A DNA stretch of 64,000 bases from an uncultured Candidatus Saccharibacteria bacterium (GTDB lineage: Bacteria; Patescibacteriota; Minisyncoccia; Phycocordibacterales; PALSA-1337), in assembly GCA_964412585.1 (NCBI GenBank), contig CAYPPJ010000001.1, positions 149,334 to 213,333 of the forward strand, given 5' to 3'. Positions 3,717-59,224 of this stretch are shown here, one piece after another. Each line of letters begins with the position of its first letter. Within the stretch, counting starts at the first letter, position 1. Below the pieces are notes generated by a model. That model worked only from the letters and a program-made list of their open reading frames with translations. It was not told where the DNA came from and searched no databases. The position numbers and the translations under genes are program-made.

Positions 3717-4484
3717 TTAGGCCGTCACCGCTTGAATTTTCTTTCGAAAAACGACGAGGCCAAGCGAAGCAAGGCCGAGCGAGGCAAGGTTTGAGCCGTT
3801 GTCAGGGACGGAAGAGCTCTTCAGCCCGACGTTGATGTTATCAAATTCTTGAACGAAGCTCTCGCCCTTATTGTACGCCTGAGCGAACACTGTGCGGAAT
3901 TGGGAAGTTAAGGGTCCCAGCGTCGTGTCACTGTAAACCGAATTCCCATTCAGAACGTAGTCAACCGAGCTACCGTTGTAGCTGATATCAATGTCGTATT
4001 GCCCCGCAACTGCAGAGCCACCAAGATTGACCCAGCCAATGTCACTGTCCCAGACACGCAGCGTCGAGCCAATATAGCCGAGGATAAAATAATCAGCTCC
4101 GACTTCGGTCCCAACATTCCCAGTGCTGCCCCAAAGGTCCGAACGTTGTCCCCCGCTAATCTGGTCGGACGTCACAAAGAGTTGGCCGGTAAGTTGCCAA
4201 TTGCCGTTAACCAGCGCCTGATGTTGCCGCCCTTGAGTGTTGTAAAACGTACTATTGTACGCCGGCGGACGATTGGCCTGGCTATCCGCGCTGGAGATGG
4301 TAATCTGCAGACGCCCTCCGACAGAATTGAAGCCCGCAGGCTCATACCGATCAGTCACCCAACCAGCAGACGGTGGACCTGTGAAGGTGTCCGTAAACGG
4401 GACGGCAAAGGAGGAATTTGAAGGGTTAATAACCGCCACAGCAAGTGCCATGGCGCCGATAATACCGACGTTAACGTGTTTCAT
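3717..4484 (-). CDS. secreted protein with PEP-CTERM-like (VPDSG-type) C-terminal sorting signal
   Basis: N-terminal signal peptide. The C-terminus is ...SSSVPDNGSNLASLGLASLGLVVFRKK, i.e. a VPDxG motif, a hydrophobic helix and a basic tail. It is GC-rich relative to its neighbours. Confidence 0.6.
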   Translation of the reverse strand: MKHVNVGIIGAMALAVAVINPSNSSFAVPFTDTFTGPPSAGWVTDRYEPAGFNSVGGRLQITISSADSQANRPPAYNSTFYNTQGRQHQALVNGNWQLTGQLFVTSDQISGGQRSDLWGSTGNVGTEVGADYFILGYIGSTLRVWDSDIGWVNLGGSAVAGQYDIDISYNGSSVDYVLNGNSVYSDTTLGPLTSQFRTVFAQAYNKGESFVQEFDNINVGLKSSSVPDNGSNLASLGLASLGLVVFRKKIQAVTA

Positions 4485-7830: not shown

Positions 7831-10524
7831 CTATTGACTCAAAAGTGAGTTTATGACTTGTATAGTTTTTGTATCCACAACACCAGTCCCCTGTGACACA
7901 CCTAACGGAACGAGTAGCTGCACTGGATGCGCCTCTTGAAAACGAATGACTGCAGCACGTGTTGCTGGACCAAAAAAATCTGTTTCATTACCAGAAGATC
8001 CGGGCCCTGAAAGGGCAACAAGAAAATTGTTACGATTCAAGAATTTTTGCAATACAAGTACATCTGGATGGCGAGAGCCTAGTGAAAGAAATGTCGAAAG
8101 TCGAACTTGTTGAATCGCGCCGGCTGGGCTTGTCGAACCTACTGTTGCACCTAAAATTGGCGTACAAATCATGTTAGCAGGACATCCTACAGCAACTACC
8201 GGTGAACGGAGCATATCAGCACGATAACGTGCAAGTGCAGCAGCTGTAATTGGCCCAAAATATCCTGTCGTATGATCAAAATCCATATACCCCTTTCCTG
8301 CAAGATACGTTTGCAATGCCAACACTTCTGAACCCCTCATGCCAACTCCTAATGCTGAATACTGATACGTAAAGCTCGTATTTAGTGATGGAACAATTGT
8401 GATTGGTATGCCTGGTACTGAGGCTGCCTTGAGAGATGTGGCAACATCAGCAGCATATTTCTTGACCGCAGCATCGGTAATAGGTCCAAAGTACCCCGTA
8501 ATACGGTCTGCACTCATGTATCCCTGTGACAGTAAAAATTTTTGAAGTCCCAGAACCGCGTCGTTCCTTGTACCAACCACCAAATGTGCATACGATGCTG
8601 GAATTTGAGGAAGTATTTTTCGAGGTTGAACAGTCGGCATTACTACTGTTGGTATCTGTACCGCTACGACTGGACTTGCCGCAGCCCCAGCACCACCACC
8701 CCCTCCGCCGCCTCCCCCGCCACCACCTCCGCCGCCAGAATTTGAAACTGAGGATGTTACCGCGTAGATAATGCTTGTCTGTGATGTGTTGCCAGCGTCG
8801 TCATAGGCAACGATCATATACCCATAGGTTGTAGCAGCTGCTAATCCCACGTGACTATAGGAAAGATCTGAAGGTGTCGTACTCAACAGATCCGACGGTA
8901 CGCATGATGCACCATTACATCCATACACTCGATATCCTGCGACACCACGTGAGTCAGTCGACGCTTCCCACGAAAGTCGTATATTACTACTTGAAAACGT
9001 ATTTGCTGAAAAGTTTTGAGGAACTGATGGCGCTGTAAGATCAAGTACCGCAACATTTGAGAGTGGAGATGAGTTTCCAGCAGCATCTCGAGAGATCAGA
9101 GCAAAATAATAAGTCTGAGTAAGCGCTGGTAAATTTATATTGTATACCTCAGGACTGCCTGAGACATACGGAACAGGTTGTAGTTGATTTGGCCCGTACC
9201 CTTCCAAAGGATTGGGCATGACCGTTATCAGCTTATCGCTCGAAAAAGTCAGGCTCGTAATTTCGGTTGATGTCGAATATCTGATTTCATATGCAGTTGA
9301 TGTCCCATAACTTCCATTATTGCCAGGTGCCGTCCATACCAGTGTCGTAGTACCTATATCTGAAAGCTGCGTCACTGACAAATCTGCAATTGTCGATGGT
9401 TTGGTGAGATCAACGAGTTCGATCGGAGTACTACTGTATGTCAGCTTGTATATCCCCGCATCTCCTACCGCGTACACTACTCCTGAATCATATGGGTCTG
9501 TCACAACTTTTTTTATTGCCACATCAGATAGATCTTTTTGGATGGGCAACCATTGGGGAATCTGTGGATCAGCATCAAGAATAGCCTCATTCGTCGTACG
9601 ATACACACCGCTTCCATAGACTGCAGCATAGGCGACATTTGAGTCAGTATAATCACTGGCAACAGTACGCACGGATCCTGATGGCAAGCCGGTACTCGAT
9701 GACGCAAAGTGTACACCACTATCATTACTCTTATATATTCCCTTGTCTGTTGCGATCCAGGCCAGGTTGCCAGACGCATGCAATACGCTGACATCATTGG
9801 TTGTAGTACCATTGGCGCTAAAAATGCGTGACCAGTTTTCATATGTACCTGAAGAAGACCTGAGCGCACTCGAGTACACATCATTGCCATTTGTTAGGGC
9901 AAAAATCTCGGCACTACCAAATGCAGTGGTGAGCTTCTTTGCGTATCCCGAAAGTCCAGTATTATCAGCTCTCCAATATGAACCAGTGGTAGTACTTATG
10001 AATACACCACTCGGTGTCGCTGCATATAGTGTGTTAAAACTGCCCTGGGTTGCTTGATATTGATCAATTGTAATGTCCAAAATAGAATTGTCACTCAAAC
10101 CGGTGCTCGTGGCAATCCATACGGGATCACTCAAGGTACTGGCGAAAATCCCGCCATCCGAAGTACCTGCAAATATATATGTCGAAGATGTGGTGGCATA
10201 CCGATCAGTGCCTGAATCATAGATCCATCCTATCGCAAGTGATGTCACATCTACATGCGGACCGAGGCCAGTGTTTACCTGGGTCCAGGATTGGCCACCA
10301 TTGATGCTTTTGAATACCCCGTGATCCGTTGCAAGATACAGAAATGAGCCGATGCCAGCAATTGTATTAAATTGATACCCTGATGCACCTGGTGGAGTGA
10401 TTGTCTCCCACTGATCGGTTGCCGCGCATACTGGCATGGCGGCTATGCACAATGCCCATAGTATGAGCATCGCAATGTAAGGGTTCGGATACCGAAAATA
10501 AGTCATGATGGATAATACAGACAC
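7831..10524 (-). CDS. large secreted surface protein: BNR/Asp-box-like repeats, FN3 domains, Gly15 linker, three C-terminal peptidoglycan-binding (PG_binding_1-like) repeats
   Basis: Signal peptide. Motifs seen in the translation: SINGGQSW, YKSNDSGVHF. FN3-like segments, then a Gly15 run, then three LxxxLxxxGY....G.FGP.T..A...YQ repeats. Confidence 0.7.
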   Translation of the reverse strand: MSVLSIMTYFRYPNPYIAMLILWALCIAAMPVCAATDQWETITPPGASGYQFNTIAGIGSFLYLATDHGVFKSINGGQSWTQVNTGLGPHVDVTSLAIGWIYDSGTDRYATTSSTYIFAGTSDGGIFASTLSDPVWIATSTGLSDNSILDITIDQYQATQGSFNTLYAATPSGVFISTTTGSYWRADNTGLSGYAKKLTTAFGSAEIFALTNGNDVYSSALRSSSGTYENWSRIFSANGTTTNDVSVLHASGNLAWIATDKGIYKSNDSGVHFASSSTGLPSGSVRTVASDYTDSNVAYAAVYGSGVYRTTNEAILDADPQIPQWLPIQKDLSDVAIKKVVTDPYDSGVVYAVGDAGIYKLTYSSTPIELVDLTKPSTIADLSVTQLSDIGTTTLVWTAPGNNGSYGTSTAYEIRYSTSTEITSLTFSSDKLITVMPNPLEGYGPNQLQPVPYVSGSPEVYNINLPALTQTYYFALISRDAAGNSSPLSNVAVLDLTAPSVPQNFSANTFSSSNIRLSWEASTDSRGVAGYRVYGCNGASCVPSDLLSTTPSDLSYSHVGLAAATTYGYMIVAYDDAGNTSQTSIIYAVTSSVSNSGGGGGGGGGGGGGGGAGAAASPVVAVQIPTVVMPTVQPRKILPQIPASYAHLVVGTRNDAVLGLQKFLLSQGYMSADRITGYFGPITDAAVKKYAADVATSLKAASVPGIPITIVPSLNTSFTYQYSALGVGMRGSEVLALQTYLAGKGYMDFDHTTGYFGPITAAALARYRADMLRSPVVAVGCPANMICTPILGATVGSTSPAGAIQQVRLSTFLSLGSRHPDVLVLQKFLNRNNFLVALSGPGSSGNETDFFGPATRAAVIRFQEAHPVQLLVPLGVSQGTGVVDTKTIQVINSLLSQ

Positions 10525-11402: not shown

Positions 11403-12296
11403 ATGAGAAAAATCTGTTTGTCTGCAGGTGCGGCCCTGTGCCTAGCACTCTGCAACTTGTGTACGGACGTGCATGGCGGTGTGCCAACGCGTATTCCCAC
11501 TCGGGATGAACTCCTTGATTGGGCGGCCACTAACACTCCCAGTTCAACAAAAATCGTACTGCAAGAAAGTGCGAATCTGGGAAGTCTCAACACCTGTGGC
11601 ATGTCGAGCAACAATATGTGTTTCAAATCCTTCGCCGACTATCAATCGTTTGTGGCCAGCCAAGGCTTGAGATTGTTCAACTTTCTCGGCTGCATCGGAA
11701 CTGCGCACGAGATACGACTTAAGGTCGTCACCACGTTCAATACCATACATGACGAAGGCGGACTGTTTGGTGTGTCCATGCGATTCATTACCGATGTCAA
11801 TCTCGGTACATGGTCACAAGTCACCCCAAACTCGTTTTATGTCATGCCCACAGTGGTTCAACCGCTTGTGATACCAGTCTCCGGATTGACTGGCGCGACT
11901 ATCAGACACGGCGACAATTCACCCGTCTCTTTGTCGACAACAAGCGATGGCAACCTTGTCTTCAATGACACTCTTTCTTCCTCGAATGGAAGAGTCCGGG
12001 TATCGCTTACTTTTACCAATGGTGAAACAGCGACATACACCCAGAGAGGCCAGCAATTGGTGCCTCCGGAATTGATGTTAATTATCAATCCACCAGACCC
12101 ATATGACCAGCCTTCGCTTACGCTCAACGTGCGAGCGACACTCGGTGCAGACACGATCATTGAGAGCGCGACGAGCCTCGACGGTACTTGGACACCAATC
12201 GGCAGCATTTCTTGGGACGCGGACACGCAAGATTTTTGGCTCTACGTTCCGACCGAGACGAGTACTATGCAGTTATTTCGCGCGCACTCGTATTGA
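11403..12296 (+). CDS. secreted hypothetical protein carrying C-terminal shared 'ESATSL..W...FR' module
   Basis: Signal peptide with a Cys-rich N-terminus. A C-terminal module is shared with four other secreted proteins in this window. Confidence 0.5.
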   Translation: MRKICLSAGAALCLALCNLCTDVHGGVPTRIPTRDELLDWAATNTPSSTKIVLQESANLGSLNTCGMSSNNMCFKSFADYQSFVASQGLRLFNFLGCIGTAHEIRLKVVTTFNTIHDEGGLFGVSMRFITDVNLGTWSQVTPNSFYVMPTVVQPLVIPVSGLTGATIRHGDNSPVSLSTTSDGNLVFNDTLSSSNGRVRVSLTFTNGETATYTQRGQQLVPPELMLIINPPDPYDQPSLTLNVRATLGADTIIESATSLDGTWTPIGSISWDADTQDFWLYVPTETSTMQLFRAHSY

Positions 12297-16843: not shown

Positions 16844-18019
16844 ATGAAAATGAAATCAATCGTTGTAGCAATCCTGGCGTTGTCGCTTTTCAGCGCAGTC
16901 GCCCAAACACCCGTCAACATTACGCTAGCCAAAAAGGCGGCGTATATTGTCAGCTTCCCAGCGGAGGCTGGGGTCGAATACACCATCCAGTCCTCGACGA
17001 ACATGTCGGATTGGATGAACGTCACCTCAATGCAAACGACAGGAGGCACAGTCTCCTACACGGATGTCGTTGACGATCATGGGCAAGGGTTTTACCGCGT
17101 GATAGCTTCGGCGACTACCGGTAGTATCCTTGTGAAACTGGATACGGCGCTTTCGCCGCCAGCTCAGATCGTGCACATATCAACCACCTCAGAAACGGAC
17201 CTGGTTCCCCTGGCGGTGTTTGATGTAAAGTCAGTTGGGAAAAATGGCACGTTAAGCACGATGAATATACAAGTCGCAACCACCGGCACGAATGTGATCA
17301 ACATGTTTACCGACATCAAGATCAAGGCCGGCGGGTCAACATATTCCGCAGACCTAATCGTCGGGAGTATTGCCCACTTTGCGAATTTGGTAATCCCCCT
17401 GCCACAAGATCAATTCCTTCCGATCACTGTGTACGGTCGAGTGGCACGAAATGTCGGCAACATGCTCGAAGGTGCGACTGCACAGGTCTCACTCGTGGCA
17501 TCCGCTGACCTCCACAATCCATATGTCATGGATGCGCAATTCAATACTATGCCGGTCAATAATTCAGTCAGTGTCGGCGCAGTAATGACCTTTGCGTCTC
17601 AAGCTGCTATTACTAGCAACTTGACGACCTCGAGCATTCCGCTCGTGAACGTGTCCAACGTGCTGTCGTACGCCGTAGGCTTCGGATATACACTGACCGC
17701 AGCAGACTCAACTCTGTACGTCAGCAAAAATCCGACTGATGCTGCAACATTCTCAGTTGGAGTCGCATCGGTGCTCGGCGGATGGTCAGGCATGGTGACG
17801 ACACCAAACGTACTTGCTGGTGACACGGTGGATTATTTCGTAGTCCCAGCTGGAAGCAGCCGATCGTTCGTGATCGCTGCCAACCTGAGTCACGTTGGCA
17901 ACGGCATAGGTTCGGCGCAAATCAACGCGCTTAACTTCGGCCTGTCATCAGGAAATCTCACTGGGTACTCCGTCACCTACGGGCTCAGCACCCTCAATGT
18001 GACCCAGGTGTTTCCGTAA
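16844..18019 (+). CDS. secreted hypothetical protein (N-terminal shared 'SSTNMSDW...FYRV' module)
   Basis: Signal peptide (MKMKSIVVAILALSLFSAVAQT). The shared module sits right after the signal peptide. Confidence 0.55.
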   Translation: MKMKSIVVAILALSLFSAVAQTPVNITLAKKAAYIVSFPAEAGVEYTIQSSTNMSDWMNVTSMQTTGGTVSYTDVVDDHGQGFYRVIASATTGSILVKLDTALSPPAQIVHISTTSETDLVPLAVFDVKSVGKNGTLSTMNIQVATTGTNVINMFTDIKIKAGGSTYSADLIVGSIAHFANLVIPLPQDQFLPITVYGRVARNVGNMLEGATAQVSLVASADLHNPYVMDAQFNTMPVNNSVSVGAVMTFASQAAITSNLTTSSIPLVNVSNVLSYAVGFGYTLTAADSTLYVSKNPTDAATFSVGVASVLGGWSGMVTTPNVLAGDTVDYFVVPAGSSRSFVIAANLSHVGNGIGSAQINALNFGLSSGNLTGYSVTYGLSTLNVTQVFP

Positions 18020-33136: not shown

Positions 33137-34054
33137 TTACTGGAAGAGTTCTTTGATGAAATTCCAGAAGCGAGAGAGGACTGATGTTCTGCCGACTGCA
33201 GCAACGTTGTCATTGTCCTGAGTCTCAGTAGTACCAACTTCCAACGTACCCGTGGTAGAAGCGGTAGTTGAGTCGGTTTGTCCGATCTCAGTAGACTGTT
33301 CAGATGAATTATCACGGCGCTTTTTGTATGCGTCAATAATAGCTTGTTCATCAGCCGTCAATGTAAATCGTGAAGTACATGCAATCTCATTGATTACCTT
33401 GATCGTGGTGATGTAGGCGAAACCTGATGGCTGAGAAGCCTCCCAAGGTCCGAGAATCAATTCTGCATATCTCTGTTGGAAAGCCATAACTGCGGCTTCG
33501 GTCTTTTTGTCAAAAGTACCATTTACATCTACGTCAAGCTTCTCAACATTCTTGAGGAATGCCTGGAGCTTACTGACCTGAATCTGGTTGTTTGCACCGC
33601 CAAATTTGAGGTAGTCGGTAATAAGTGGGCATGAAGCAGGAGCTACTGTAGTAGCAGGCAAAGTAGTAGTCGACGCAACTGACAAAACAGTTACTGTGCT
33701 ACCATTTGAACCTGAAGGAACAAAACCTCCTCCGCCTGTTGTACCACCGGTGTTACCACCAGTATTGTCTCCGCCGCCAGTGTCTACTGGCGTCTGAGGT
33801 GTTGGAGCATCATCTTCACCATTTGATGATGAAGGTGTTGTATTTCCGCCAGTCTGCTCGTTCTGGGCTGGAGGGGTGACCGCATCATCACTACCGTTAT
33901 CGACGGTAGGATTTGTTGTCTCTGAAGGGGTGGTGATAACAGGTGTTACCGCATCATCACTGCCATTGGTCGTATCTGCTGAAACAGAAGAAACTCCTGC
34001 AACAAATACGAGGAGAAAGGCCGCAAAAGCTATTAATGTAAGGTTATTTTTCAT
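33137..34054 (-). CDS. secreted protein with NGSDDAVTP repeats, Gly/Thr-rich linker and peptidoglycan-binding-like domain
   Basis: Signal peptide. Repeated DNGSDDAVTP. GGNTGGTTGGGG linker. VSKLQAFLKNV...NGTFDKKTEAAVMAFQQRY resembles PG_binding_1. Confidence 0.6.
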   Translation of the reverse strand: MKNNLTLIAFAAFLLVFVAGVSSVSADTTNGSDDAVTPVITTPSETTNPTVDNGSDDAVTPPAQNEQTGGNTTPSSSNGEDDAPTPQTPVDTGGGDNTGGNTGGTTGGGGFVPSGSNGSTVTVLSVASTTTLPATTVAPASCPLITDYLKFGGANNQIQVSKLQAFLKNVEKLDVDVNGTFDKKTEAAVMAFQQRYAELILGPWEASQPSGFAYITTIKVINEIACTSRFTLTADEQAIIDAYKKRRDNSSEQSTEIGQTDSTTASTTGTLEVGTTETQDNDNVAAVGRTSVLSRFWNFIKELFQ

Positions 34055-34175: not shown

Positions 34176-35297
34176 TCAGAGGTCGGGAGGTGGTGCTGAC
34201 CACGTCCGACGCGCTTTGAGGCGGAAATACCGTTCCGAATTGACGCTCGGGTAGTCACGGTAGCCCTGACTCCCCAGTTGGAGCGACTCGCCAATGATTT
34301 TGAGCCATGGAGCTCCTGTAAGGTTCTCCGCCGACTCGATGTCGTAGGAGAAGCTATACTGGCCACCGATCATGACGACCCGCGCCATGGTGGGCGTATA
34401 GCGGTATGCAAGCAATGATGGCACTGCAGCAACCGCGAGCTCACTGGCGACCGTGGCGTCATTGCTGACCAGTTCAGCATGTACCCAGGGCACCGGCGTC
34501 GTCGCGAATTGATCCATCACATCAGTGAAGTCACCCGGCTGGTTTCCAGTAATATAAACGCTGGAGCCAAACCGAGTAAAGTAATCGATGTGCACCTGGT
34601 GTGCATATACAGGTGACGGCTGACTGCCGTCGTACACGGTATCATCACCGCCAGCCACCACTTTTCCGAGGGAAGAATTCCACGCACTGTCGAGTACACC
34701 ATTTGGGCCATAATCGACGCCAATATAGGTGAAACTGAACTGAAGTGGAGTGCCGTCCGCCGAATTGGTGCTGACCGAGAAATAACTGGGTGCAATATTG
34801 GTGATGGAAGTGGTGAGCCGAACGAAGAAATCATTCGGGTTACCTTTCCCCGCCACCGAAATGACCCAGCGGTGACCATGTTCGTCACTGGCAACATTGT
34901 TCGTGGGAGCCGGAGCGCCCATAAAACTTTTTGCCAGCGTGACAGTCCCATCAAACCATTGAAGCCCATAATTCGGCCCCCACGTTTGTGGAACGCGGTA
35001 CCATGCGGCCGGCGTTATCATCCGGTCCGTCGGCACATCGCCACCCCACATGCCCTTCACTGTATTGACACGACTTTGCGTCAGATGAGGAGATGAGAGG
35101 CTGCACATCGAGGCGATATAGATCGCACTCTCCCCAAGAGGAGCTCGCGGTGCAGGTTGGAGTTCAAGCCGGATAGGCTTGTTGACCGATTTGGGATAGG
35201 GGACGTTGTCATCCCCTCCGTTCACGACCACCAAGGTGGCCGCGTGAGTCGCCAAGGCGCATAAAAGCGCTAGTGTGACCAGCAGGTTTGTTTTCAT
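34176..35297 (-). CDS. secreted hypothetical protein (C-terminal shared module), GC-rich
   Basis: Start set at MKTNLLVTLALLCALATHA (signal peptide). C-terminus is ...IESAENLTGAPWLKIIG...ERYFRLKA. Confidence 0.55.
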   Translation of the reverse strand: MKTNLLVTLALLCALATHAATLVVVNGGDDNVPYPKSVNKPIRLELQPAPRAPLGESAIYIASMCSLSSPHLTQSRVNTVKGMWGGDVPTDRMITPAAWYRVPQTWGPNYGLQWFDGTVTLAKSFMGAPAPTNNVASDEHGHRWVISVAGKGNPNDFFVRLTTSITNIAPSYFSVSTNSADGTPLQFSFTYIGVDYGPNGVLDSAWNSSLGKVVAGGDDTVYDGSQPSPVYAHQVHIDYFTRFGSSVYITGNQPGDFTDVMDQFATTPVPWVHAELVSNDATVASELAVAAVPSLLAYRYTPTMARVVMIGGQYSFSYDIESAENLTGAPWLKIIGESLQLGSQGYRDYPSVNSERYFRLKARRTWSAPPPDL

Positions 35298-35497
35298 TTG
35301 TAGGTGCTCCACCTCACAGTATACGTATGCGCCCATTCGGGGCGCATCAAGCATGGTGTTCAAGCTCCGTAGACCGAAATTTGTGATGAGGTGGTTCCCT
35401 TGCTTTCTAGCAAAGAATTACCTTCTTGTCAAGGTCCTCTCATAGTGAACTGGGCTATGAACAGGCGCCTTGCAGGACGATTTGGTATAATGATTTC

Positions 35498-43958: not shown

Positions 43959-44771
43959 TTAGGGCACCCACAGCTTTTTCATGCGGAAAAATGCCCGTTC
44001 GTGATATTTCTCACCAATAACACCCACCTGTTCTTTGAGGACCTCACTATCACCCGGACTATTGGCGATGCCGACTTCTTCCCAATTTAGCAGATTCGTT
44101 GATGCCTCGACGGAATATGACGTATTAGGTTCCATGAAACCGTTCAGTACCAATCCTTTGCTTGTCGAATTTGGAATGGGTTGCAGGATCAAGCGACTGA
44201 TCTGAGCGAAGTCAGCTGAAACAAGCGGCGCACGAGCAACTACGCCAGTAAATTTCTCACCTGACACATTTGGAACGGCCACGAGTGTACTGTTTACCTG
44301 ATCAACAAGTCTAACCGTGCGACTATCGCCATGCTGATACGTCACCGATATCTCTGATCCGATCTCGAAGCCACCGACGAAGTCGGCGACGACGCGAATC
44401 GTGCGAAATCCATTGGTCGGAATGACAAGATTGGTAATCGTGTCAAAGATGACTCTGCCGTTGTCACAGTCGCAGACGATCGGAGTGCTCCAGACTCGTT
44501 TTGGATCCGTCAACACCACGCCGTTTTCATCAAACAAACGAACGTTGATGACTTGGTGATAGATCCAGGACGGCACAGTGACGCCGAAAGCAATCTGGGT
44601 AAGTTGAAGTTCTTGATCCTCGTCGCCAGTGACAATAAATCGTGCCAACGTCGAGTTGGTCGTGATGCGCACATGGGCAGGAGTGGCTGCCGTTGCCTGG
44701 AGACTACCCGCCCAGACCGAGGCTTGCAATAATGTTGATACGGCAAGTGCGAGAATAACTAACAGTTTCAT
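43959..44771 (-). CDS. secreted hypothetical protein (C-terminal shared module)
   Basis: Signal peptide. C-terminus is YSVEASTNLLNWEEVGIAN...RAFFRMKKL. Confidence 0.5.
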   Translation of the reverse strand: MKLLVILALAVSTLLQASVWAGSLQATAATPAHVRITTNSTLARFIVTGDEDQELQLTQIAFGVTVPSWIYHQVINVRLFDENGVVLTDPKRVWSTPIVCDCDNGRVIFDTITNLVIPTNGFRTIRVVADFVGGFEIGSEISVTYQHGDSRTVRLVDQVNSTLVAVPNVSGEKFTGVVARAPLVSADFAQISRLILQPIPNSTSKGLVLNGFMEPNTSYSVEASTNLLNWEEVGIANSPGDSEVLKEQVGVIGEKYHERAFFRMKKLWVP

Positions 44772-44908: not shown

Positions 44909-45823
44909 TTACAACCTTACGTAGAACACATCCTTACCCTCTTTCACATAGAGTGCTCCGGCCCAAATACGATACTCTATTTTTGGGCCAAGAAAAATCG
45001 GGACGGCTGGCTTCCGTGGTCCAGCATCTGTCTCAAGAGCAAAAAGCCCTTTGTGCGTCAGGATAATGGCCACATCCTTGCGTCCTGGGAAAAAATCAAC
45101 AGACAAAACGGTGGTAGCAACTGGAACATGAACCTGTGTTACACAGACATTTTCTTGCTCAATAACAGAACAGAAAAATCGAGGAATGCGAGACATGCTT
45201 CCCTGCCACTCAAACACGACAATATGATTGCGCTCAGTCCACAGGGCTACCGATGAATTGATCCGCGCAGTAGATGTTGAGGTAGCAACAGGGGTTGTTG
45301 AAGCAGGATTGAATAACGCATGAATGTGCTCGTATTGATCCATCGGCACACGTGCAATCAATGCCTCAGTCGAGGTTGAAAGAGTGCTCACACTCGAAGT
45401 TGCTTCCAATTCTGGTAGAACTTTTCGAACGGGAATCGGGTCGGGCAAAATGAGTGCCGACGCAAGTGCAACGTATCGAGGTAGAACAGTAACATCCTTG
45501 TGCCACGGCGTAGTACCAGTCGCACTAATATCGACAGCATGCAACCCAGGGCTCATGCCATCAATAAATAATGTTTCAGAGAAAAAGTTTGGTGTTTCAG
45601 TGCTGTACACTCCGTCGATATATACAGACGAGCCAGGAACCAGTGTATCGAGCACAATCGCACCCGTCGAAGTAACAGAGGTCTGACCCTTGGTATCTGT
45701 GAAGGTCAAACGATATCCGTTCACATATGATACGACGAGCGGTACAAGGATGATGAATGCAACAAATGCCCCAAGGGCAAGGGCACGGCGAGAACGGACC
45801 GACATCGGTCGCATGACTTCCAT
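44909..45823 (-). CDS. membrane-anchored hypothetical protein (PEGA-like domain)
   Basis: N-terminal TM. GAIVLDTLVPGSSVYIDGVYSTETP resembles a PEGA motif. Confidence 0.45.
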   Translation of the reverse strand: MEVMRPMSVRSRRALALGAFVAFIILVPLVVSYVNGYRLTFTDTKGQTSVTSTGAIVLDTLVPGSSVYIDGVYSTETPNFFSETLFIDGMSPGLHAVDISATGTTPWHKDVTVLPRYVALASALILPDPIPVRKVLPELEATSSVSTLSTSTEALIARVPMDQYEHIHALFNPASTTPVATSTSTARINSSVALWTERNHIVVFEWQGSMSRIPRFFCSVIEQENVCVTQVHVPVATTVLSVDFFPGRKDVAIILTHKGLFALETDAGPRKPAVPIFLGPKIEYRIWAGALYVKEGKDVFYVRL

Positions 45824-45865
45824 ATGGAGGCGATTGTAGCACAGAACGACACGCCAAACACGCTC

Positions 45866-47401
45866 TCACGGGCGGTGTTTTGGAGTAACCCAAAATCCCA
45901 GGTATTTACCCACGAACAACCTCGTTTGCGCCTCAAGCGCTGGAATTGCACCAAATATCACTATAGTGAGGGGCACCAAGATCCACTGGATGACCATCCA
46001 CAATGACTGACGCGCAGGTATATGTTTTGGACGTGGTGGCAATAGTGACATGGCCATGTACGCTGACACGATGAGGCCAAACATGGTCACAAACATGATG
46101 TCACGGGTAATAATCGGCAAATTGTATGAAATAACCAACGTCGAAAAATCCCCTCTCCCAATAATAGTTGGCAACCAGCCAAGCAAAAATATCAACAAAG
46201 GGTTGGTTGCCAATGACCAAAAGCCCTCGAGTTGAACCCATGACATTTTGACTTTTTTACCTTTTGGAATTTCTTTTCGTTTCAAGAAATTGAACAGAAT
46301 ATAGGGAACATTTTCAACACCCCATGACCAGCGTCGTTGCTGTAAATATATATTTTTGAGCGTCCCCCAGAATGTTGGAGCGAGATTGGCATCCATTGAA
46401 ACAGGATATGCGATCGGTACGACTTCATAATCACTACCAAAATGCATGTAGCAATTCCAAAAGATGCGCGAGTCCTCTGAGACCATATTTGTCTGCCAAT
46501 AGCCCACGCGACGCAACGTTTCAAACAACACCGCATGCGACGAGAATGTAGCAAGCCGTTCTGGACGCTCTTGTTGAACCATTTGCCAAAAAGTCCCGGA
46601 AAAGGCCACGACGCGCGAGAGGGCTGGCGCATCCCAGATATTGTTGTTATAGAGCGGTACAGGTTGAAATGAAGCGTAGAGTGGTCGAGGGTGATTGAGC
46701 ACGTGCCATGATAAGCATGCGAAATAATCTGGATAGACTACCGTATCAATATCAAAAGCAGAAACAATAACGTGTGTGTATGCAATCCCCTTTTTGTCCA
46801 AGACTTCCGTACGTACCTGTTCGGCCGCATATGAAATGTTAGAACCTTTTCCCGGCATTTCTCCTTCAACATCTGATGGATGAAATGAAACAAAAAAAGT
46901 CCCGAACAGTGAACCATATTCGCGCTGGGCGCGTTCTGCTTTCTCCCGTGCAGATTGACCTGCACGTTCTTCGGCGGCCAACACGACAATGAGACGCTCA
47001 GGAGAAATATGGGCACCCAGAAGTGACTCCAAACTTTTCGCTATCACGCCATAATCTTCTTTATAAAAGGGCAAGATAACAAGGTGATGGAGATGTTCAT
47101 GAGAAAACTGCTTCAATAATTGTCGCCAATCGGTCGCCAACGCTTTCTTGGTACGCCTCCAATTTGTACGCAAATGAATCGAAAGAAAAATCGTTTTGAG
47201 AAACCAATAAATATCAAACGCTATAATAAATATAGCTGCGTATAACGGCACCCAGTACGATGCCGCTATTGCACCGAGAATAGTACCCCATGACAGTATC
47301 GCAGGAATCATTTCAAACAAGCGATATATCTTGCGGTCAGCACCACGAAGCTCGGTTGCCCTACCGATTTTGTAGTGAGTTGAGATGCGTGCGGTTTCCA
47401 T
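45866..47401 (-). CDS. family 2 glycosyltransferase, integral membrane processive synthase type (QxxRW)
   Basis: DxD-type region and QQRRWSWG. Multiple TM helices. Start set at the ATG at 47401 to avoid overrunning tRNA-Thr. Confidence 0.75.
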   Translation of the reverse strand: METARISTHYKIGRATELRGADRKIYRLFEMIPAILSWGTILGAIAASYWVPLYAAIFIIAFDIYWFLKTIFLSIHLRTNWRRTKKALATDWRQLLKQFSHEHLHHLVILPFYKEDYGVIAKSLESLLGAHISPERLIVVLAAEERAGQSAREKAERAQREYGSLFGTFFVSFHPSDVEGEMPGKGSNISYAAEQVRTEVLDKKGIAYTHVIVSAFDIDTVVYPDYFACLSWHVLNHPRPLYASFQPVPLYNNNIWDAPALSRVVAFSGTFWQMVQQERPERLATFSSHAVLFETLRRVGYWQTNMVSEDSRIFWNCYMHFGSDYEVVPIAYPVSMDANLAPTFWGTLKNIYLQQRRWSWGVENVPYILFNFLKRKEIPKGKKVKMSWVQLEGFWSLATNPLLIFLLGWLPTIIGRGDFSTLVISYNLPIITRDIMFVTMFGLIVSAYMAMSLLPPRPKHIPARQSLWMVIQWILVPLTIVIFGAIPALEAQTRLFVGKYLGFWVTPKHRP

Positions 47402-47425
47402 AGTGTTCGCTGTGACGCGTCGCGG

Positions 47426-47498
47426 AGCCACCTCCCAGGCTTGAACTGGGGACCTTCGCTTTACAAAAGCGTTGCTCTACCAACTGAGCTAAGGTGGC
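47426..47498 (-). tRNA. tRNA-Thr (TGT), CCA not encoded
   Basis: Acceptor GCCACCT/AGGTGGC, D arm GCTC-AGTTGGTA-GAGC, anticodon loop TTTGTAA, T arm CCCAG-TTCAAGC-CTGGG. 73 nt. Confidence 0.8.
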
Positions 47499-51416: not shown

Positions 51417-52121
51417 TTATTTCTTTGCGACCAATGAGGCGCGGCTGACTTTGCTGAGCTTCTTCAATGCCTCGATAGCTACCTTCGCATTGTTGAGACG
51501 GTTCTTGCTGCCTGAGAGGAACTTTGCACAGACGTCCTTGATACCTGCAAGCTCAATAACTGCACGTGCTGAGCTGCCAGCGACAATACCGCGTCCCCGA
51601 GCGGGGAAAATCATCACGCGTGCACTCGCATACTTTGCTTCGACGGCGTGCGGAATAGTCATCTGCGCCGACAAAGGAACTTTGATGAGGTTCTTCTTGG
51701 CGTCTCGGGTAGCCTTTTCGACTGCTGAAGCAGTATCAATACTCTTGCCCAAGCCGACTCCAACACGACCCTTGTGATCACCAGCAACGACGGCAACACT
51801 GAAGTTCATACGGCGACCTCCTGAGGTCACACGGGTAACGCGGCGAATATCGATGATCTTGCTGTCAAACTCCGGTTTGACACGCTCACGAGGCTCACCA
51901 CGATTGCCACCGCGCGGACCACCGCGGCCTTGAGGACCACTCGATCCGCCACGACGTGCAGTGTCACCACGCATCTTTCGTCCTGGAGTAATCTTGTTAG
52001 CAACTGCTGGTACACCTTCGACCGCAGTCTCAGGAGCAGCAACAAGAGAAGCATCGATACCCGTTGAAGGAATCTTTACTTCTGCTACATCTGGAGTTGT
52101 TTTGATATCTTTGGCTGTCAT
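51417..52121 (-). CDS. rpsE: 30S ribosomal protein S5 (N-terminal extension)
   Basis: IIDIRRVTRVTSGGRRMNFSVAVVAGDHKGRVGVGLGKS. Confidence 0.85.
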   Translation of the reverse strand: MTAKDIKTTPDVAEVKIPSTGIDASLVAAPETAVEGVPAVANKITPGRKMRGDTARRGGSSGPQGRGGPRGGNRGEPRERVKPEFDSKIIDIRRVTRVTSGGRRMNFSVAVVAGDHKGRVGVGLGKSIDTASAVEKATRDAKKNLIKVPLSAQMTIPHAVEAKYASARVMIFPARGRGIVAGSSARAVIELAGIKDVCAKFLSGSKNRLNNAKVAIEALKKLSKVSRASLVAKK

Positions 52122-54886: not shown

Positions 54887-56176
54887 TTATTTACGTTTAT
54901 TTATTTTTTGTATCTCCTGCGTTCGCACATCTTTATTCAAGCGTGTATTGGCCTTGATAAGGAGCGTTGCCTCCTTGGCCTGACGCTCAGAATCTACCAG
55001 TGCTGAATATGACTGATCGGCTTCACCATTTTGATCATGAGCATCTGCATCATTGAGCGAATCCTGTGCGCGTTGCAATGACATCTGTGCCTCTTCTGCA
55101 ATACTCTGCTGGATACGTGATGATGTTGCGGTATTTGTTGATGAAGCAATCACCTCATGTACTTGTTTGATGAGCGACTGCAAGCGAGCCTTTTTCTTGA
55201 GATACTCTGGGTTCACCGAAATAGTTCGCTGTCGTGATTTTGTCGAAGCCACAGGAGCCAGCACTGACTCATGGGTATCGGATTTTTGTGTGGTTTCAAC
55301 AGTGACAGTAGAAGCTGTCCATCCTGCCGGTGTTGGTGTCGCCGTGGTAAGTGACGCGCCTGCCATAACTGGTGCCGCAGGTGCTGACATCATTGTTGCA
55401 GACTGAGGTGTGGAAACCACTGGCACAGATGGTGGTTGAACTTTTGTTGCGCGTGCGACAATGACAACATCCTTCGAAGGGTTATTTTTTGCTCGCTCAC
55501 CATTTGAATCTTTTTGAGTATCCTGTTTTTTGGTAGATACGGCAAGGGTTTTTTCAGTGCGGAATTGACCACGATTGATCGCCAATACACTCAGGACACG
55601 TTCATGAGTACTAATACTTGCATCAACGGTAGTATTTATATCTTGCGCTTTGTCAGGTTGGGTTTTCTGAATCTCGGCGACATTGATAGCAAGCTGTGTC
55701 TTTTGAACTTCGACACTCTGCTCAATCTGCCGTTCCTGTGCTTCGGTCAATGTACCACGCGCTGCCAACGTCTCAGCTTCCTGCAAACGCTTTTGCACCA
55801 ACTCAGCATGAATCTCAGCTTTGGCGACCGGTGTCGAGGCAAGTGCAACGCGGACAGGCTCAACAACATTCACCTTGAGCGAATACAATGAGTCGCCCGG
55901 AAGCGCATCACTTGAGGCGCGTACTGCTGAATTCCCCGCCAAAAGTACAATGACAATCACCGCGACTACTGAAACCCAGCGATGCTGTTGAATCCAGATA
56001 TTAAATGAATACACCGTCCACGGGCTTTTTATGCGAACTTTTTTCTCGCCCTTCGTATGTATTGCTGGTGCAACCTGCGAATCCAAGACACGCTTCAGGA
56101 CCATCTGCTTTTCGGTAGATGTCATAGATATCTTTTTGATATCCTGTATTGCTTTGTTGAATCGGGTGTCTTTCAT
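54887..56176 (-). CDS. anti-sigma factor (single TM, extracytoplasmic coiled-coil/Ala-Thr-Pro-rich domain)
   Basis: 4-nt start overlap with the upstream ECF sigma gene. Short cytoplasmic N-terminus, a TM helix (WVSVVAVIVIVLLAG), then a long extracellular domain. Confidence 0.6.
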   Translation of the reverse strand: MKDTRFNKAIQDIKKISMTSTEKQMVLKRVLDSQVAPAIHTKGEKKVRIKSPWTVYSFNIWIQQHRWVSVVAVIVIVLLAGNSAVRASSDALPGDSLYSLKVNVVEPVRVALASTPVAKAEIHAELVQKRLQEAETLAARGTLTEAQERQIEQSVEVQKTQLAINVAEIQKTQPDKAQDINTTVDASISTHERVLSVLAINRGQFRTEKTLAVSTKKQDTQKDSNGERAKNNPSKDVVIVARATKVQPPSVPVVSTPQSATMMSAPAAPVMAGASLTTATPTPAGWTASTVTVETTQKSDTHESVLAPVASTKSRQRTISVNPEYLKKKARLQSLIKQVHEVIASSTNTATSSRIQQSIAEEAQMSLQRAQDSLNDADAHDQNGEADQSYSALVDSERQAKEATLLIKANTRLNKDVRTQEIQKINKRK

Positions 56177-56715
56177 TGGGTTGTATCCAGTTCGATGTCG
56201 TATCCAGTTACTTTTCGCAGTTCTTCAATTCCTCTATTTATTCTGACTGACGCTGCATTCGTTGAAATCTTGAGTATCTTGGCAATATCGGGTGGCGATA
56301 ATCCTTCGACGAACCGCAAATACACGGCATCTTTATGTCCTGGACTCAACTGGTTTATCTTGTCGACAAGAAACCGACCCTCACCTTCAAGCCTACTATC
56401 CATGACAGCGGAATCTGAAAGTGGCTCATATGGCTCACCTATCTCCTCACTTTCCATCGCCTCCAGCGAAACTGCCTTCTTTTTGCGATACCAGTCAATA
56501 ATGGCATTTCGTGCAACAGTAAAAATAAATGCGCGCGGATACTCTATGCCCGTGCCTGCCTGGTTCATGGATTGCCACAAGCGAGTAAAAACTTCCTGCG
56601 ACAAATCGAGAGCCTGCTCCCGATCACTCACCCTGAGGTAGCAAAAACGAAAGATGGCATCAGCCTCCTTTGTGTATATATCGGTAAATGTGCCTTGAAT
56701 GTCAGGTTTCGCCAT
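56173..56715 (-). CDS. ECF-family RNA polymerase sigma factor (sigma-24 type)
   Basis: Region 2 (DLSQEVFTRLWQ...ARNAIIDWYRKK) and region 4 HTH (LSPPDIAKILKISTNAASVRINRGIEEL). Confidence 0.85.
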   Translation of the reverse strand: MAKPDIQGTFTDIYTKEADAIFRFCYLRVSDREQALDLSQEVFTRLWQSMNQAGTGIEYPRAFIFTVARNAIIDWYRKKKAVSLEAMESEEIGEPYEPLSDSAVMDSRLEGEGRFLVDKINQLSPGHKDAVYLRFVEGLSPPDIAKILKISTNAASVRINRGIEELRKVTGYDIELDTTQ

Positions 56716-56895
56716 AGAGTAAGACGGAGAAATAGAGGTATTCTTTCTGAACTTCGGGATCCTCTAACATATAGAATATACAACGTATCTGATGCTCTGT
56801 CGATGTAAGCTCCGCGAGAACAGGCCGTCTATACCTAGGCAGGACCTATGAACCTGTACCATCATATCCGTTTACCATTTAATCAATTTATTACT

Positions 56896-57834
56896 ATGAA
56901 AACATCACTTAAACACATCGTTATGACAGCGCTTGCGGTGACTTTGGTCGCAAGCCCGTTTGTCAGCTTTGCCAAGGAGAACGAAAAAAGCCAAAAGAAT
57001 GAGAAAAGTAACAAAGTAGAACGTGTCAAAAAACAAGGAGATGGGAATAGAAACGAGCACAGCGACTCGTCCCGTCTAACTAAAGTAAATACTTCATGTC
57101 TCAAGGCTTACGGTCACTTGATTGCCCCAGGCTGGCTCAAGAAGAATTGGACAAATACTGTTGATGCGAACTGCTGGTTGCCATTTGGCATCGCCAAAAA
57201 GTTTTGCGGCAACAATGCCTCAACTACTCCAGATGTGACCGCACCAGTTATCAGTAATCTCGCGTTCAATCCTGCACTCAAGCAAGCTGAGGTACGCTGG
57301 AGCACTGATGAAAATTCAAACAGCGTTGTCTTCTGGAGTCTTACTTCGACTATTGATACCTCCGACGCCGCAACGAATCGCATTACCAAAGCTGATTACA
57401 CAAAGAACCATCGTGTCATCCTGAGGAATCTTACACCAGATACAACCTATTATGTTATCGTCAAATCAAAGGATGTATCTGGTAACAGTTCCCACTCAAG
57501 TGTAGGTTCATTCAAAACAAAAACACCTACAGCTGATACTCAGGTTCCCGTCATCAGCAACGTGGTTACTCTCATCGGCACCTCTACGATACAGGTAGGT
57601 TGGAAGACACATGAGAACACTACTGATCGCATCTATTATTCAACCATTCTTCCCGTCACGTTGAATGCAAGCACTACGTCGTACGTATCGAATACGACTG
57701 GAGCACAGAACCATGCGCTGACAATATCAAGTCTTTCACCTAACACAACATACTATCTTGTCATCGAATCAACTGATGGCGCAGGTAATGTGACGACATC
57801 AGCAACATTCTCTGCGACAACAGCAGGTATCTAG
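56896..57834 (+). CDS. secreted protein with two fibronectin type III domains
   Basis: Start set at MKTSLKHIVMTALAV (signal peptide). Two PAP-N/FN3-like modules (VRWSTDENSNSVVFWS...TTYYV and VGWKTHENTTDRIYYS...TTYYL). Confidence 0.6.
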   Translation: MKTSLKHIVMTALAVTLVASPFVSFAKENEKSQKNEKSNKVERVKKQGDGNRNEHSDSSRLTKVNTSCLKAYGHLIAPGWLKKNWTNTVDANCWLPFGIAKKFCGNNASTTPDVTAPVISNLAFNPALKQAEVRWSTDENSNSVVFWSLTSTIDTSDAATNRITKADYTKNHRVILRNLTPDTTYYVIVKSKDVSGNSSHSSVGSFKTKTPTADTQVPVISNVVTLIGTSTIQVGWKTHENTTDRIYYSTILPVTLNASTTSYVSNTTGAQNHALTISSLSPNTTYYLVIESTDGAGNVTTSATFSATTAGI

Positions 57835-57976
57835 TGCCAGACCGAGTACTTCTACAAAAAACGTCCTATTACGGGCGTTTTTTGTATATTGACTAAGTGC
57901 TATAATATGTGGTATAATATACAGGTAGTGATGGATTTTTTACAGTCAAATCAACAACAAACCTGGAGAGAAAACA

Positions 57977-59224
57977 ATGAAAAGAATGATCATCGTGGTA
58001 GCACTCATGTTGAGTGTTACCTCCCAAGCAGCCCAGTTGTACCAGCTCGTCGTGCTTGACGACGGCACCAACGAAAGCTGCGCCTACGGCGTAAACAACT
58101 TCGGTTTCAGCGTCGGCTACAAGAAAGTGGCTGGCGTAATGAAGCCCTGTTTGTGGACACCAGCACGTGGGTACCTGGAACTACCGAGAGCCGTGCAGGC
58201 AACAGATCCGCACGGAATTGCTTACGCAATCAATGACAAGTTCAGTGTCGTCGGTACGTACGGTGCCACCAATGTCTCATCCCACCGAATCGACGTGGGA
58301 GCAGTCGTTGGTTGGAATTGGGATGGAGAGATGGGTCAGTTCAGCACCAAAGCTCTTGCCGACGGAATGATTGGCAACTCCCGAGACATCAATTCCAACG
58401 GAGATGCCGCCTGCACAAGGTACGGATACGCGTGGTGTGCGTGTATTGATAACATGTACACCGATGCGGTCCAGTATTCGTGTGCGTTCTCTGGCTCTGC
58501 GTGCTACGGCATCAATGAGCAAGGAAATGCTGTTGGACAGCGGTATTCGTACTACGCCAATGCAAACGTTCCGATTTACTACCGGAAAAATTCCGATGGA
58601 TCCTATGCATCAACCTCGAGTGACGGAATGTTTCTAGACATAGGCAACAGCGCCTGCTATGACATCAACTCGAATAACGTTGCTGTAGGCTCATCGGATC
58701 AGGCTGGCTTCTATTGGGAACCGGACAAATACTCATTGAACATGTTCCCCATTTCTACGCGTTGTTACTCCATAAATAACGCCAGCACGATCGTCGGTAG
58801 TAGCAATGGAGTTGCTTGTATGTGGGAAAAAGGGACAAACGGCTCGTACAAGTGCACCGACTTGAACAAGTTGGCGACGAGTACTATACCAGGAATCGTG
58901 ATGCGGAAGGCGTTCCGGATCAGTGACGCTGGCCAAATCGTCGGCCAGTGCGTAAACACAAACACGGGCGTTCAAAGCGCCTTCATGCTGACGCCCGCCG
59001 TACGTGCACCACGATGCCTCAAGAAGGCCCCGAACAACCAGCTCGAATTCAATTGGCTGGTAACCGAAGGACACACTTATGCGTTTCGTTTCAGCGAAGA
59101 CCTCAAGTCGTGGGTGTCCTATCCCGACTTGTACTACGCCGACACGAGCACAGATGTAAGTGTCTTTTTCTCCATCGATGACATGCCTAAAGCGTTCATC
59201 GACATCGTGGATACGACCCCGTAA
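57977..59224 (+). CDS. secreted HAF-family extracellular repeat protein
   Basis: Signal peptide, then about 7 repeats of the A.GIN..G..VG type (YGVNNFGFSVGY, AYAINDKFSVVGTY, CYGINEQGNAVGQRY, CYDINSNNVAVGSS, CYSINNASTIVGSS, AFRISDAGQIVGQ). Confidence 0.65.
   Translation: MKRMIIVVALMLSVTSQAAQLYQLVVLDDGTNESCAYGVNNFGFSVGYKKVAGVMKPCLWTPARGYLELPRAVQATDPHGIAYAINDKFSVVGTYGATNVSSHRIDVGAVVGWNWDGEMGQFSTKALADGMIGNSRDINSNGDAACTRYGYAWCACIDNMYTDAVQYSCAFSGSACYGINEQGNAVGQRYSYYANANVPIYYRKNSDGSYASTSSDGMFLDIGNSACYDINSNNVAVGSSDQAGFYWEPDKYSLNMFPISTRCYSINNASTIVGSSNGVACMWEKGTNGSYKCTDLNKLATSTIPGIVMRKAFRISDAGQIVGQCVNTNTGVQSAFMLTPAVRAPRCLKKAPNNQLEFNWLVTEGHTYAFRFSEDLKSWVSYPDLYYADTSTDVSVFFSIDDMPKAFIDIVDTTP

Follow-up and report, generated by a model that had tools for sequence, protein, structure and literature searches.

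The question raised by the p16844 gene is what kind of element lies directly behind the signal peptide of its secreted product. A preliminary description of the surrounding window (the whole 64,000-nucleotide stretch of DNA that was analyzed) had noticed here a segment that recurs in five otherwise unrelated secreted proteins, at the N-terminus in p16844, at the C-terminus in p43959, p11403 and p34176, and in a weaker form in a HAF-repeat-like protein (the HAF protein), and it had proposed a sorting, anchoring or adhesion module that it could not place in a named family from the sequence alone. The translations of the five segments match the letters that had been quoted, the module copies of the first four proteins lie at the ends described (Table 1), and a signal-peptide-like N-terminus is present in all five proteins. 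Outside the module, no BLASTP similarity is found among the five (all E > 0.4), which, together with the variable position of the module, supports the view that it is a discrete and mobile unit on otherwise unrelated secreted proteins.

The likeness between the segments is slight, with a pairwise identity of just 15-19%, and it might be put down to chance or to the composition of secreted proteins rich in beta structure, with no shared domain behind it. The strict motif expression that accompanied the original observation matches three of the proteins among 586 six-frame ORFs and misses the other two, and a looser expression finds four of the five with no other match among the same 586 ORFs of at least 50 aa. 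In leave-one-out HMMs built from three segments each, the left-out segment is always the top non-training ORF, with E values of 1.5e-4, 0.039, 0.069 and 0.14, and the weakness of three of these four values (0.04-0.14), obtained with three-sequence HMMs, is the other point in favor of chance. Against it, a foreign-only profile, consisting of 98 module copies of other organisms and zero window sequences, places the five proteins at ranks 1-5 of the 586 ORFs at E values from 7.7e-16 (p16844) through 5.1e-8 (p43959), 6.9e-6 (p34176, profile positions 14-83) and 3e-5 (p11403, positions 16-83) to 5.6e-5 (the HAF protein, 57977), in a test that is fully independent for the HAF copy only, the foreign sequences having been recruited by a seed profile that included four window segments. 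Rank 6, at E 0.039, goes to an fn3 protein verified with Pfam. When the residues of each segment are shuffled, 0/2,000 shuffles attain the real score in all five cases, a significance check that the preliminary description had itself called for. Chance resemblance is refuted by the ranking and the shuffles together with the thousands of database relatives described below, a confident AF2 fold also speaks against it, and we give it hardly any credence.

Table 1. Module-bearing genes of the window and the module copies that they encode.
Feature	Coordinates	Strand	Basis
p16844, gene for a 391-aa secreted protein	16844..18019	+	ORF list, homologues, syntenic orthologue in other Patescibacteria, alignment
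p16844 layout: signal peptide aa 1-21; module aa 22-89; ~300-aa conserved core ending ..YFVVPAGSSRSF..			
Module in p16844, N-terminal copy, predicted six-stranded FN3-like beta-sandwich	16907..17110	+	
p11403, gene for a 297-aa secreted protein	11403..12296	+	identical database protein P0025
Module in p11403, C-terminal copy aa 221-297, protein end ..QLFRAHSY	12063..12293	+	foreign-only HMM, shuffles
p34176, gene for a 373-aa secreted protein	34176..35297	-	database versions 373 and 392 aa
Module in p34176, C-terminal copy, then 14-residue tail (..RYFRLKARRTWSAPPPDL)	34179..34433	-	foreign-only HMM, shuffles
p43959, gene for a 270-aa secreted protein, unannotated N-terminal domain and C-terminal module	43959..44771	-	
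Module in p43959, C-terminal copy aa 191-270, protein end ..AFFRMKKLWVP	43962..44201	-	foreign-only HMM, shuffles
Gene for the 415-aa secreted HAF-repeat-like protein	57977..59224	+	weak HAF_rpt and DUF3466 matches only
Module in HAF protein, divergent C-terminal copy	58994..59221	+	foreign-only HMM, hhalign, shuffles

The unit proved to be longer than the approximately 45 aa first proposed. It spans 65-70 aa and opens with about 20 residues, holding two extra strands, ahead of the Y-x-[IV]-[EQ] motif, and the interval originally marked in p16844 (16964-17110) covers strands C to F of its module only. The HAF copy is indeed the weaker one: its profile match is confined to strands B-C-C' (59018-59134), that is, to the first half of the module, where hhalign gives a probability of 86% and E 5.3e-6 over 37 columns, but the [FY][FY]R motif that had been attributed to it is lost, with ..KAFIDIV in place of that strand. 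The start of p34176 was set at ATG 35297, which yields a signal peptide, whereas the ORF list starts the gene at TTG 35363. In p43959, for which a Pfam scan gives no family, the only homologues are three close orthologues, of which all three carry the module and which are uninformative about an exchange of the C-terminal domain; the module motifs are retained in orthologues at 80% and 49% identity, and this retention may be a sign of selection on the module.

The consensus of the module reads P-x-L-x-l ... G-x-f-x-L-x-f-x-G-x-p-G-x-x-Y-x-I-Q-a-S-t-d-L-x-x-W-x-x-L ... G ... f-x-D ... R-F-Y-R-v, with the signature G-x-x-Y-x-[IV]-[QE]-x-[ST]-x-[DN]-L-x-x-W ... F-x-D ... R-F-Y-R, in which the Trp is invariant, the Arg near-invariant, and Y, Q/E, D/N and D are also conserved. 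A 7-sequence module profile run against 1.84 billion representative proteins returned 3,283 clusters at E <= 1e-3, 143 of them at E <= 1e-10, many with 2-10 matched stretches per protein. Among the best proteins, 143/152 carry 2-8 copies at a median spacing of 78.5 aa and 133/152 have their last copy <=15 aa from the C-terminus, figures that are biased upward because the top-150 list favors multi-copy proteins. The C-terminus lies 4-6 residues past the [FY][FY]R motif in 110/155 module proteins, and the terminal residue is proline in 72/124. The absence of a family name holds up: Pfam and NCBIfam scans place no family on the module, either in the window proteins or in foreign proteins made almost wholly of the repeat, and when 104 single modules are compared with Pfam, fn3 is matched by 0/104 and any family at E <= 0.01 by at most 2/104. 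We found no description of the domain in the literature. Partner domains in 79 relatives include fn3, Ig, cadherin-like, MBG, DUF11, Calx-beta, cohesin, Kelch and FG-GAP, a set of domains such as makes up large adhesin-like proteins outside the cell. The names of source organisms are those of the p16844 family, not of the module family at large, and outside Patescibacteria both of the module proteins that have such names (n=2) come from Verrucomicrobiota. The module is best classed as a distinct family that has no curated model and belongs to a very common sort, the beta-sandwich modules at the ends of bacterial surface proteins.

A structure prediction, which had been suggested as a check, supports a discrete beta-sandwich. 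With p16844 residues 22-92 and a 104-sequence alignment as input, AF2 gave a model with pLDDT 89.6 and pTM 0.76, and with strands at module residues 4-8, 12-30, 37-54 and 62-68. The best structural matches to this model in a fold search are the CtXyl5A Fn3 module (PDB 5g56) and 3mpc, followed by dozens of animal and bacterial FN3 domains that align over 64-69 of 71 residues at about 2-2.7 Å; Foldseek lists FN3 domains as well, with weaker E-values. The module is thus modeled as a six-stranded FN3-like Greek-key beta-sandwich (A, B, C, C', E, F) in which the last strand bears the [FY][FY]R motif. Its G strand appears to be absent, because strand F is followed by just a few more residues before the module proteins end and because the residues behind the module in p16844 belong to the next domain, as judged from their alignment with module-less homologues. 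We read both the missing G strand and a conserved surface patch from the strand pattern and the protein ends, not from the AF2 coordinates. The preliminary description had named a known generic fold, such as the end of an FN3 domain, as the outcome that would undo its proposal, and this came out in part: the 45 aa first marked make up the C-terminal two-thirds of a generic FN3-like sandwich, but the sequence family is distinct, and the model makes the module a divergent family within a fold that is very common, rather than an element of a new kind.

The canonical FN3 fold has seven strands arranged in ABE and C'CFG sheets and is about 90 aa long, compared with six strands in the module model and about 68 aa. 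Against fn3 (PF00041), 0/104 isolated modules match at E <= 0.01, the five window proteins have no fn3 match over the module, and the fn3 matches of multi-domain relatives fall in separate regions. In hhalign, 104 modules compared with seven Pfam-verified FN3 domains give a probability of 0.3% and E 0.19, in a comparison whose sensitivity is limited by the small FN3 alignment. The module also differs from the bacterial Fn3 domains of CtXyl5A and 3mpc in having its own signature (Y-x-I-Q-x-S-x-D-L-x-x-W ... RFYR) and in being strongly terminal, not internal. A profile search of the PDB returned, as its sole significant matches, the discoidin/CBM32 domains 4zy9, 2rv9 and 4zxe (E 5.6e-5 to 8.3e-5), which are DD1/DD2 domains of a Paenibacillus glucanase/chitosanase matched over strands B to E, and only across residues 53-110 of the 137-aa discoidin chain; FN3 chains come next at E 0.007-0.4. 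Multi-copy module proteins also have sub-threshold Pfam matches to F5_F8_type_C, F5_F8_type_C_2, DUF3999 and CBM_35_2. No single module matched PF00754, F5_F8_type_C_2 was matched by 1/104 at E 0.009, and the discoidin Pfam cut-off is passed only by the summed scores of multiple copies, as in P0016 with 38.3 bits against 28.2 and 0 stretches passing. The discoidin domain is a jelly-roll of about 130-150 aa with eight strands, and a module of about 68 aa and six strands falls outside that definition, although the discoidin motif series v-L-W ... Y-x-I-Q-V-S-x-D ... W ... f ... RY-V-R parallels that of the module in our own reading. By our reasoning the module core B-C-C'-E-F shares its connectivity with jelly-roll strands D-H, and because of this the fold search cannot separate an FN3 from a discoidin origin. 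The module is FN3-like at the level of fold, carries a faint discoidin echo in its sequence, and belongs to neither family as these are defined. Discoidin, F5/8 type C and CBM32 domains, which are galactose-binding-domain-like, are carbohydrate-binding surface modules, and the weak likeness to the core strands of discoidin/CBM32 makes a glycan-binding ancestry of the module possible.

What the module might do is best approached through the homologues of p16844. These have a conserved ~300-aa core in common, and the 13 complete members all come from Patescibacteria MAGs; the genome matches of the family (11/11) are to MAGs titled Candidatus Saccharibacteria, Paceibacterota, Parcubacteria, Paceibacteria or Patescibacteria group, and one MAG holds a syntenic orthologue in the order RF, MFS transporter, p16844 gene. 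In the window itself, 23 bp separate the S5 gene from the L15 gene and no L30 intervenes, an arrangement that is typical of the candidate phyla radiation. The 13 complete members divide into five with the module and eight with PG_binding_1 (PF01471), with none carrying both and none carrying neither. In the five (the window protein, L003, which is the same as P0003, L004, L006 and P0007) the module sits directly behind the signal peptide, and the foreign copies in the family match the profile at E 8e-10 to 1.6e-5. Six of the eight (L005, L007, L009, L010, L012 and P0008) have PG_binding_1 in that post-signal-peptide slot (aa ~35-108) at E 4e-13 to 3e-10, and it is also present in two larger relatives, L008 and L013. 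The module in this family takes the exact place of PG_binding_1: P0007, with the order [module]-[X]-[core], aligns domain for domain with the [PG_binding_1]-[X]-[core] members. In a neighbor-joining tree of the core the module and PG_binding_1 types each form a clade of their own, P0007 branching at the base of the one with the module. The exchange was probably a single displacement event, maintained since then in members whose identity is now just 31-41%, and because the two types form two separate clades it counts as one observation, not many. Two further PG_binding_1 proteins are encoded in the window, at 7831-10524 and 33137-34054.

The mutual exclusion of module and PG_binding_1 from the same slot in 13 homologues gives indirect support to the anchoring or adhesion idea of the preliminary description. 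We propose, with a probability of about one half, that the module is a non-covalent, non-catalytic attachment module. The proteins are exported by the Sec pathway, and the module is placed at one end of the mature protein. From there it would attach to an envelope polymer or protein, either of the bacterium's own wall or of a host-cell surface, and the unrelated passenger part would thereby be kept or displayed at the surface; the tandem copies seen in other phyla would add avidity. Both the binding function and its target are inferred from the distribution of the module and from the exchange. The likeness to LysM, SLH and PG_binding_1 is a functional analogy only, these domains too being N- or C-terminal and often tandem, and the module shares the traits that mark this functional class, in that it is terminal, often tandem, and carried by unrelated Sec-exported proteins. 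Pfam scans found no sequence relationship between the module and PG_binding_1, LysM or SLH. PG_binding_1 is a helical bundle and LysM has a beta-alpha-alpha-beta fold. We also considered a more specific proposal, which we hold to be rather unlikely, in which the module would be a phylum-spanning retention domain, a G-strand-less sandwich, possibly derived from discoidin, that tethers proteins without sortase or membrane anchor through an envelope glycan or an edge-strand partner. On this proposal it would take over from the peptidoglycan-binding domain in Patescibacteria, and it could then be directed at the host-cell surface in these episymbionts.

FN3-like domains frequently act as passive spacers, which counts against the attachment reading, and the module could likewise be a stalk, spacer or folding aid without a ligand of its own, as in the Fn3 domain of CtXyl5A. 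Its top structural matches are that very Fn3 module, from a cellulosomal arabinoxylanase of Clostridium thermocellum, and 3mpc, and the proteins that bear it are rich in further beta-sandwich repeats. Spacers, however, are normally found between functional parts, whereas the module is nearly always last, or first behind the signal peptide, and its conserved polar and aromatic positions (W, R, Y, Q/E, D/N, D) go beyond what would be expected of a core alone. A spacer role is weakened because nothing lies beyond the module to be spaced and because its conserved positions exceed the needs of the core, and in the p16844 family the module moreover stands in for a known binding domain, so that we regard a purely structural role as somewhat unlikely. 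A self-association unit, in which the exposed edge of strand F would pair with another copy or protein to build surface arrays or fibers, is suggested by the six strands of the model, by the 4-6 residues after strand F, which leave no room for a G strand, by the assignment of the p16844 residues past the module to the next domain, and by the dimerization of T9SS C-terminal domains through swapping of their C-terminal strand (PMC4804311). This is structural reasoning alone, and tandem copies in one chain could satisfy the edge internally; we consider self-association improbable.

The sorting part of the original proposal fared less well. A hydrophobic or charged C-terminal tail is lacking, as is an LPXTG or PEP motif, the module also occurs N-terminally and in tandem, and no sortase-like partner is common to five gene neighborhoods. 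We accordingly discarded LPXTG and PEP-CTERM/VPDSG-CTERM signals, the protein ends (..FFRMKKLWVP, ..LFRAHSY, ..WSAPPPDL and ..IVDTTP) having no hydrophobic stretch and the Pfam and NCBIfam scans for such signals being negative. No sortase-like family was found among 48 of the window's largest ORFs, and the gene neighborhoods of five module proteins from other organisms have no partner in common, whether sortase, exosortase, T9SS or other genes. Patescibacteria are generally held to be without an outer membrane, and an export signal for that membrane would therefore have no target. The remaining form of the idea is a C-terminal export or sorting domain read by a dedicated secretion or attachment machine, as in the substrates of type IX secretion. 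The stereotyped C-terminal position would fit this, with 110/155 proteins ending 4-6 residues past FYR and 72/124 in proline, as would the fact that the T9SS C-terminal domain is also a small Ig-like beta-sandwich that ends many unrelated secreted proteins (PMC4804311). That domain is, however, seven-stranded, present in a single copy, strictly C-terminal and found in the Bacteroidetes phylum (PMC4804311), whereas the module is found in Patescibacteria and Verrucomicrobiota, takes an N-terminal position in the p16844 clade and reaches up to 10 tandem copies elsewhere. Membership of the T9SS C-terminal domain families (TIGR04183 / TIGR04131) was rejected on the N-terminal and tandem copies and on the lack of any NCBIfam match on the modules; Por_Secre_tail has no match on the window proteins and a 0.07 match elsewhere in P0009 only. 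The terminal proline is the first residue of the inter-repeat linker, and because of this the stereotyped ending may mark a domain boundary only. With the five gene neighborhoods also lacking a common partner gene, a dedicated export or sorting signal seems very improbable.

To a specialist the module will be one more divergent Ig/FN3-like sandwich, and as such unsurprising. Current Pfam and NCBIfam nevertheless leave at least 3,283 protein clusters blank at this domain, giant adhesin-like proteins included, and a curated model of the module would annotate them. The genomes of Patescibacteria are tiny, many of these bacteria live fixed to the cells of a host, and how they retain their surface proteins and grip their hosts is poorly known. 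As a mark of five or more secreted proteins within 64 kb that also swaps with a peptidoglycan-binding domain, the module offers a practical handle for listing the Patescibacteria surface proteome, and it is a concrete candidate for binding assays as well.

The chains of the module-bearing proteins, whose FN3-like domain carries an [FY][FY]R motif in its last strand, end in a stereotyped fashion, and among the related proteins P0009-P0155, 110 of 155 terminate 4-6 residues past this motif and 72 of 124 have proline as the last residue (e.g., ..RFYRIRSP and ..RYYRSVHP). In the window itself, the 270-aa secreted protein p43959 ends in ..FFRMKKLWVP. This stereotyped C-terminus may do nothing beyond marking a domain boundary, or else it may be a recognition feature. 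A PEP-CTERM-like sorting tail, which is not expected for a Patescibacteria genome, was found in none of the module proteins. The tail of a separate 255-aa protein gave an end-to-end match with the Pfam VPDSG-CTERM model over aa 225-250, which is sub-threshold (12.8 bits, with the cut-off at 25; E 0.11).

Features of the window, with the alternative starts of the 34176 gene
Feature	Position	Strand	Detail
255-aa protein	3717-4484	-	signal peptide; C-terminal end ..SSVPDNGSNLASLGLASLGLVVFRKKIQAVTA
34176 gene, TTG start	35363	-	395 aa
34176 gene, ATG start	35354	-	392 aa, = database entry P0160
34176 gene, ATG start	35297	-	373 aa, = P0020
Ribosomal protein L15 gene	50764-51393	-	
Ribosomal protein S5 gene	51417-52121	-	
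DUF5667 protein	54887-56176		
ECF-type sigma factor	56173-56715		
Secreted double-FN3 protein	56848-57834		
HAF/module protein	57977-59224	+	415 aa

For the 34176 gene (34176-35363, - strand) the choice of start codon is ambiguous, and of the three options only the ATG at 35297 gives the encoded module protein a clean signal peptide. Adjoining p43959 are two genes (44909-47431, - strand). The product of one, 304 aa long, is a borderline match to the PEGA domain (20.9 bits vs a cut-off of 20.8), and that of the other, 521 aa long, matches no family; the two genes and p43959 together may form an operon for surface proteins. The sigma factor and DUF5667 genes likewise adjoin those for the double-FN3 and HAF/module proteins, and this stretch (54887-59224) may be a regulated cluster of surface proteins. 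Elsewhere in the window, the gap between the S5 and L15 genes is just 23 bp, so no L30 gene lies between them; loss of L30 has been reported for the candidate phyla radiation, and the arrangement fits with it.

The JGI protein P0001, encoded on a contig of 3,807 bp, is identical to the secreted protein p16844 (16844-18019) over ~313 aa and then continues into an unrelated 21-aa tail (..YFLDNLYRETCGHSDCHIESK), which is probably an artefact of that assembly arising from a contig end or a frameshift. The p16844-type core (..YVIPAGSSRxF..), together with a related X domain, which precedes it in some members, recurs in large surface proteins that bear PG_binding_1 and reach 1,396 aa, as seen at loci L005, L007-L010, L012, and L013 of Patescibacteria MAGs. 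Some copies are paralogues inside one MAG, with three in JBAYIX010000001.1. These proteins are an expanded, unannotated surface-protein family of Patescibacteria.
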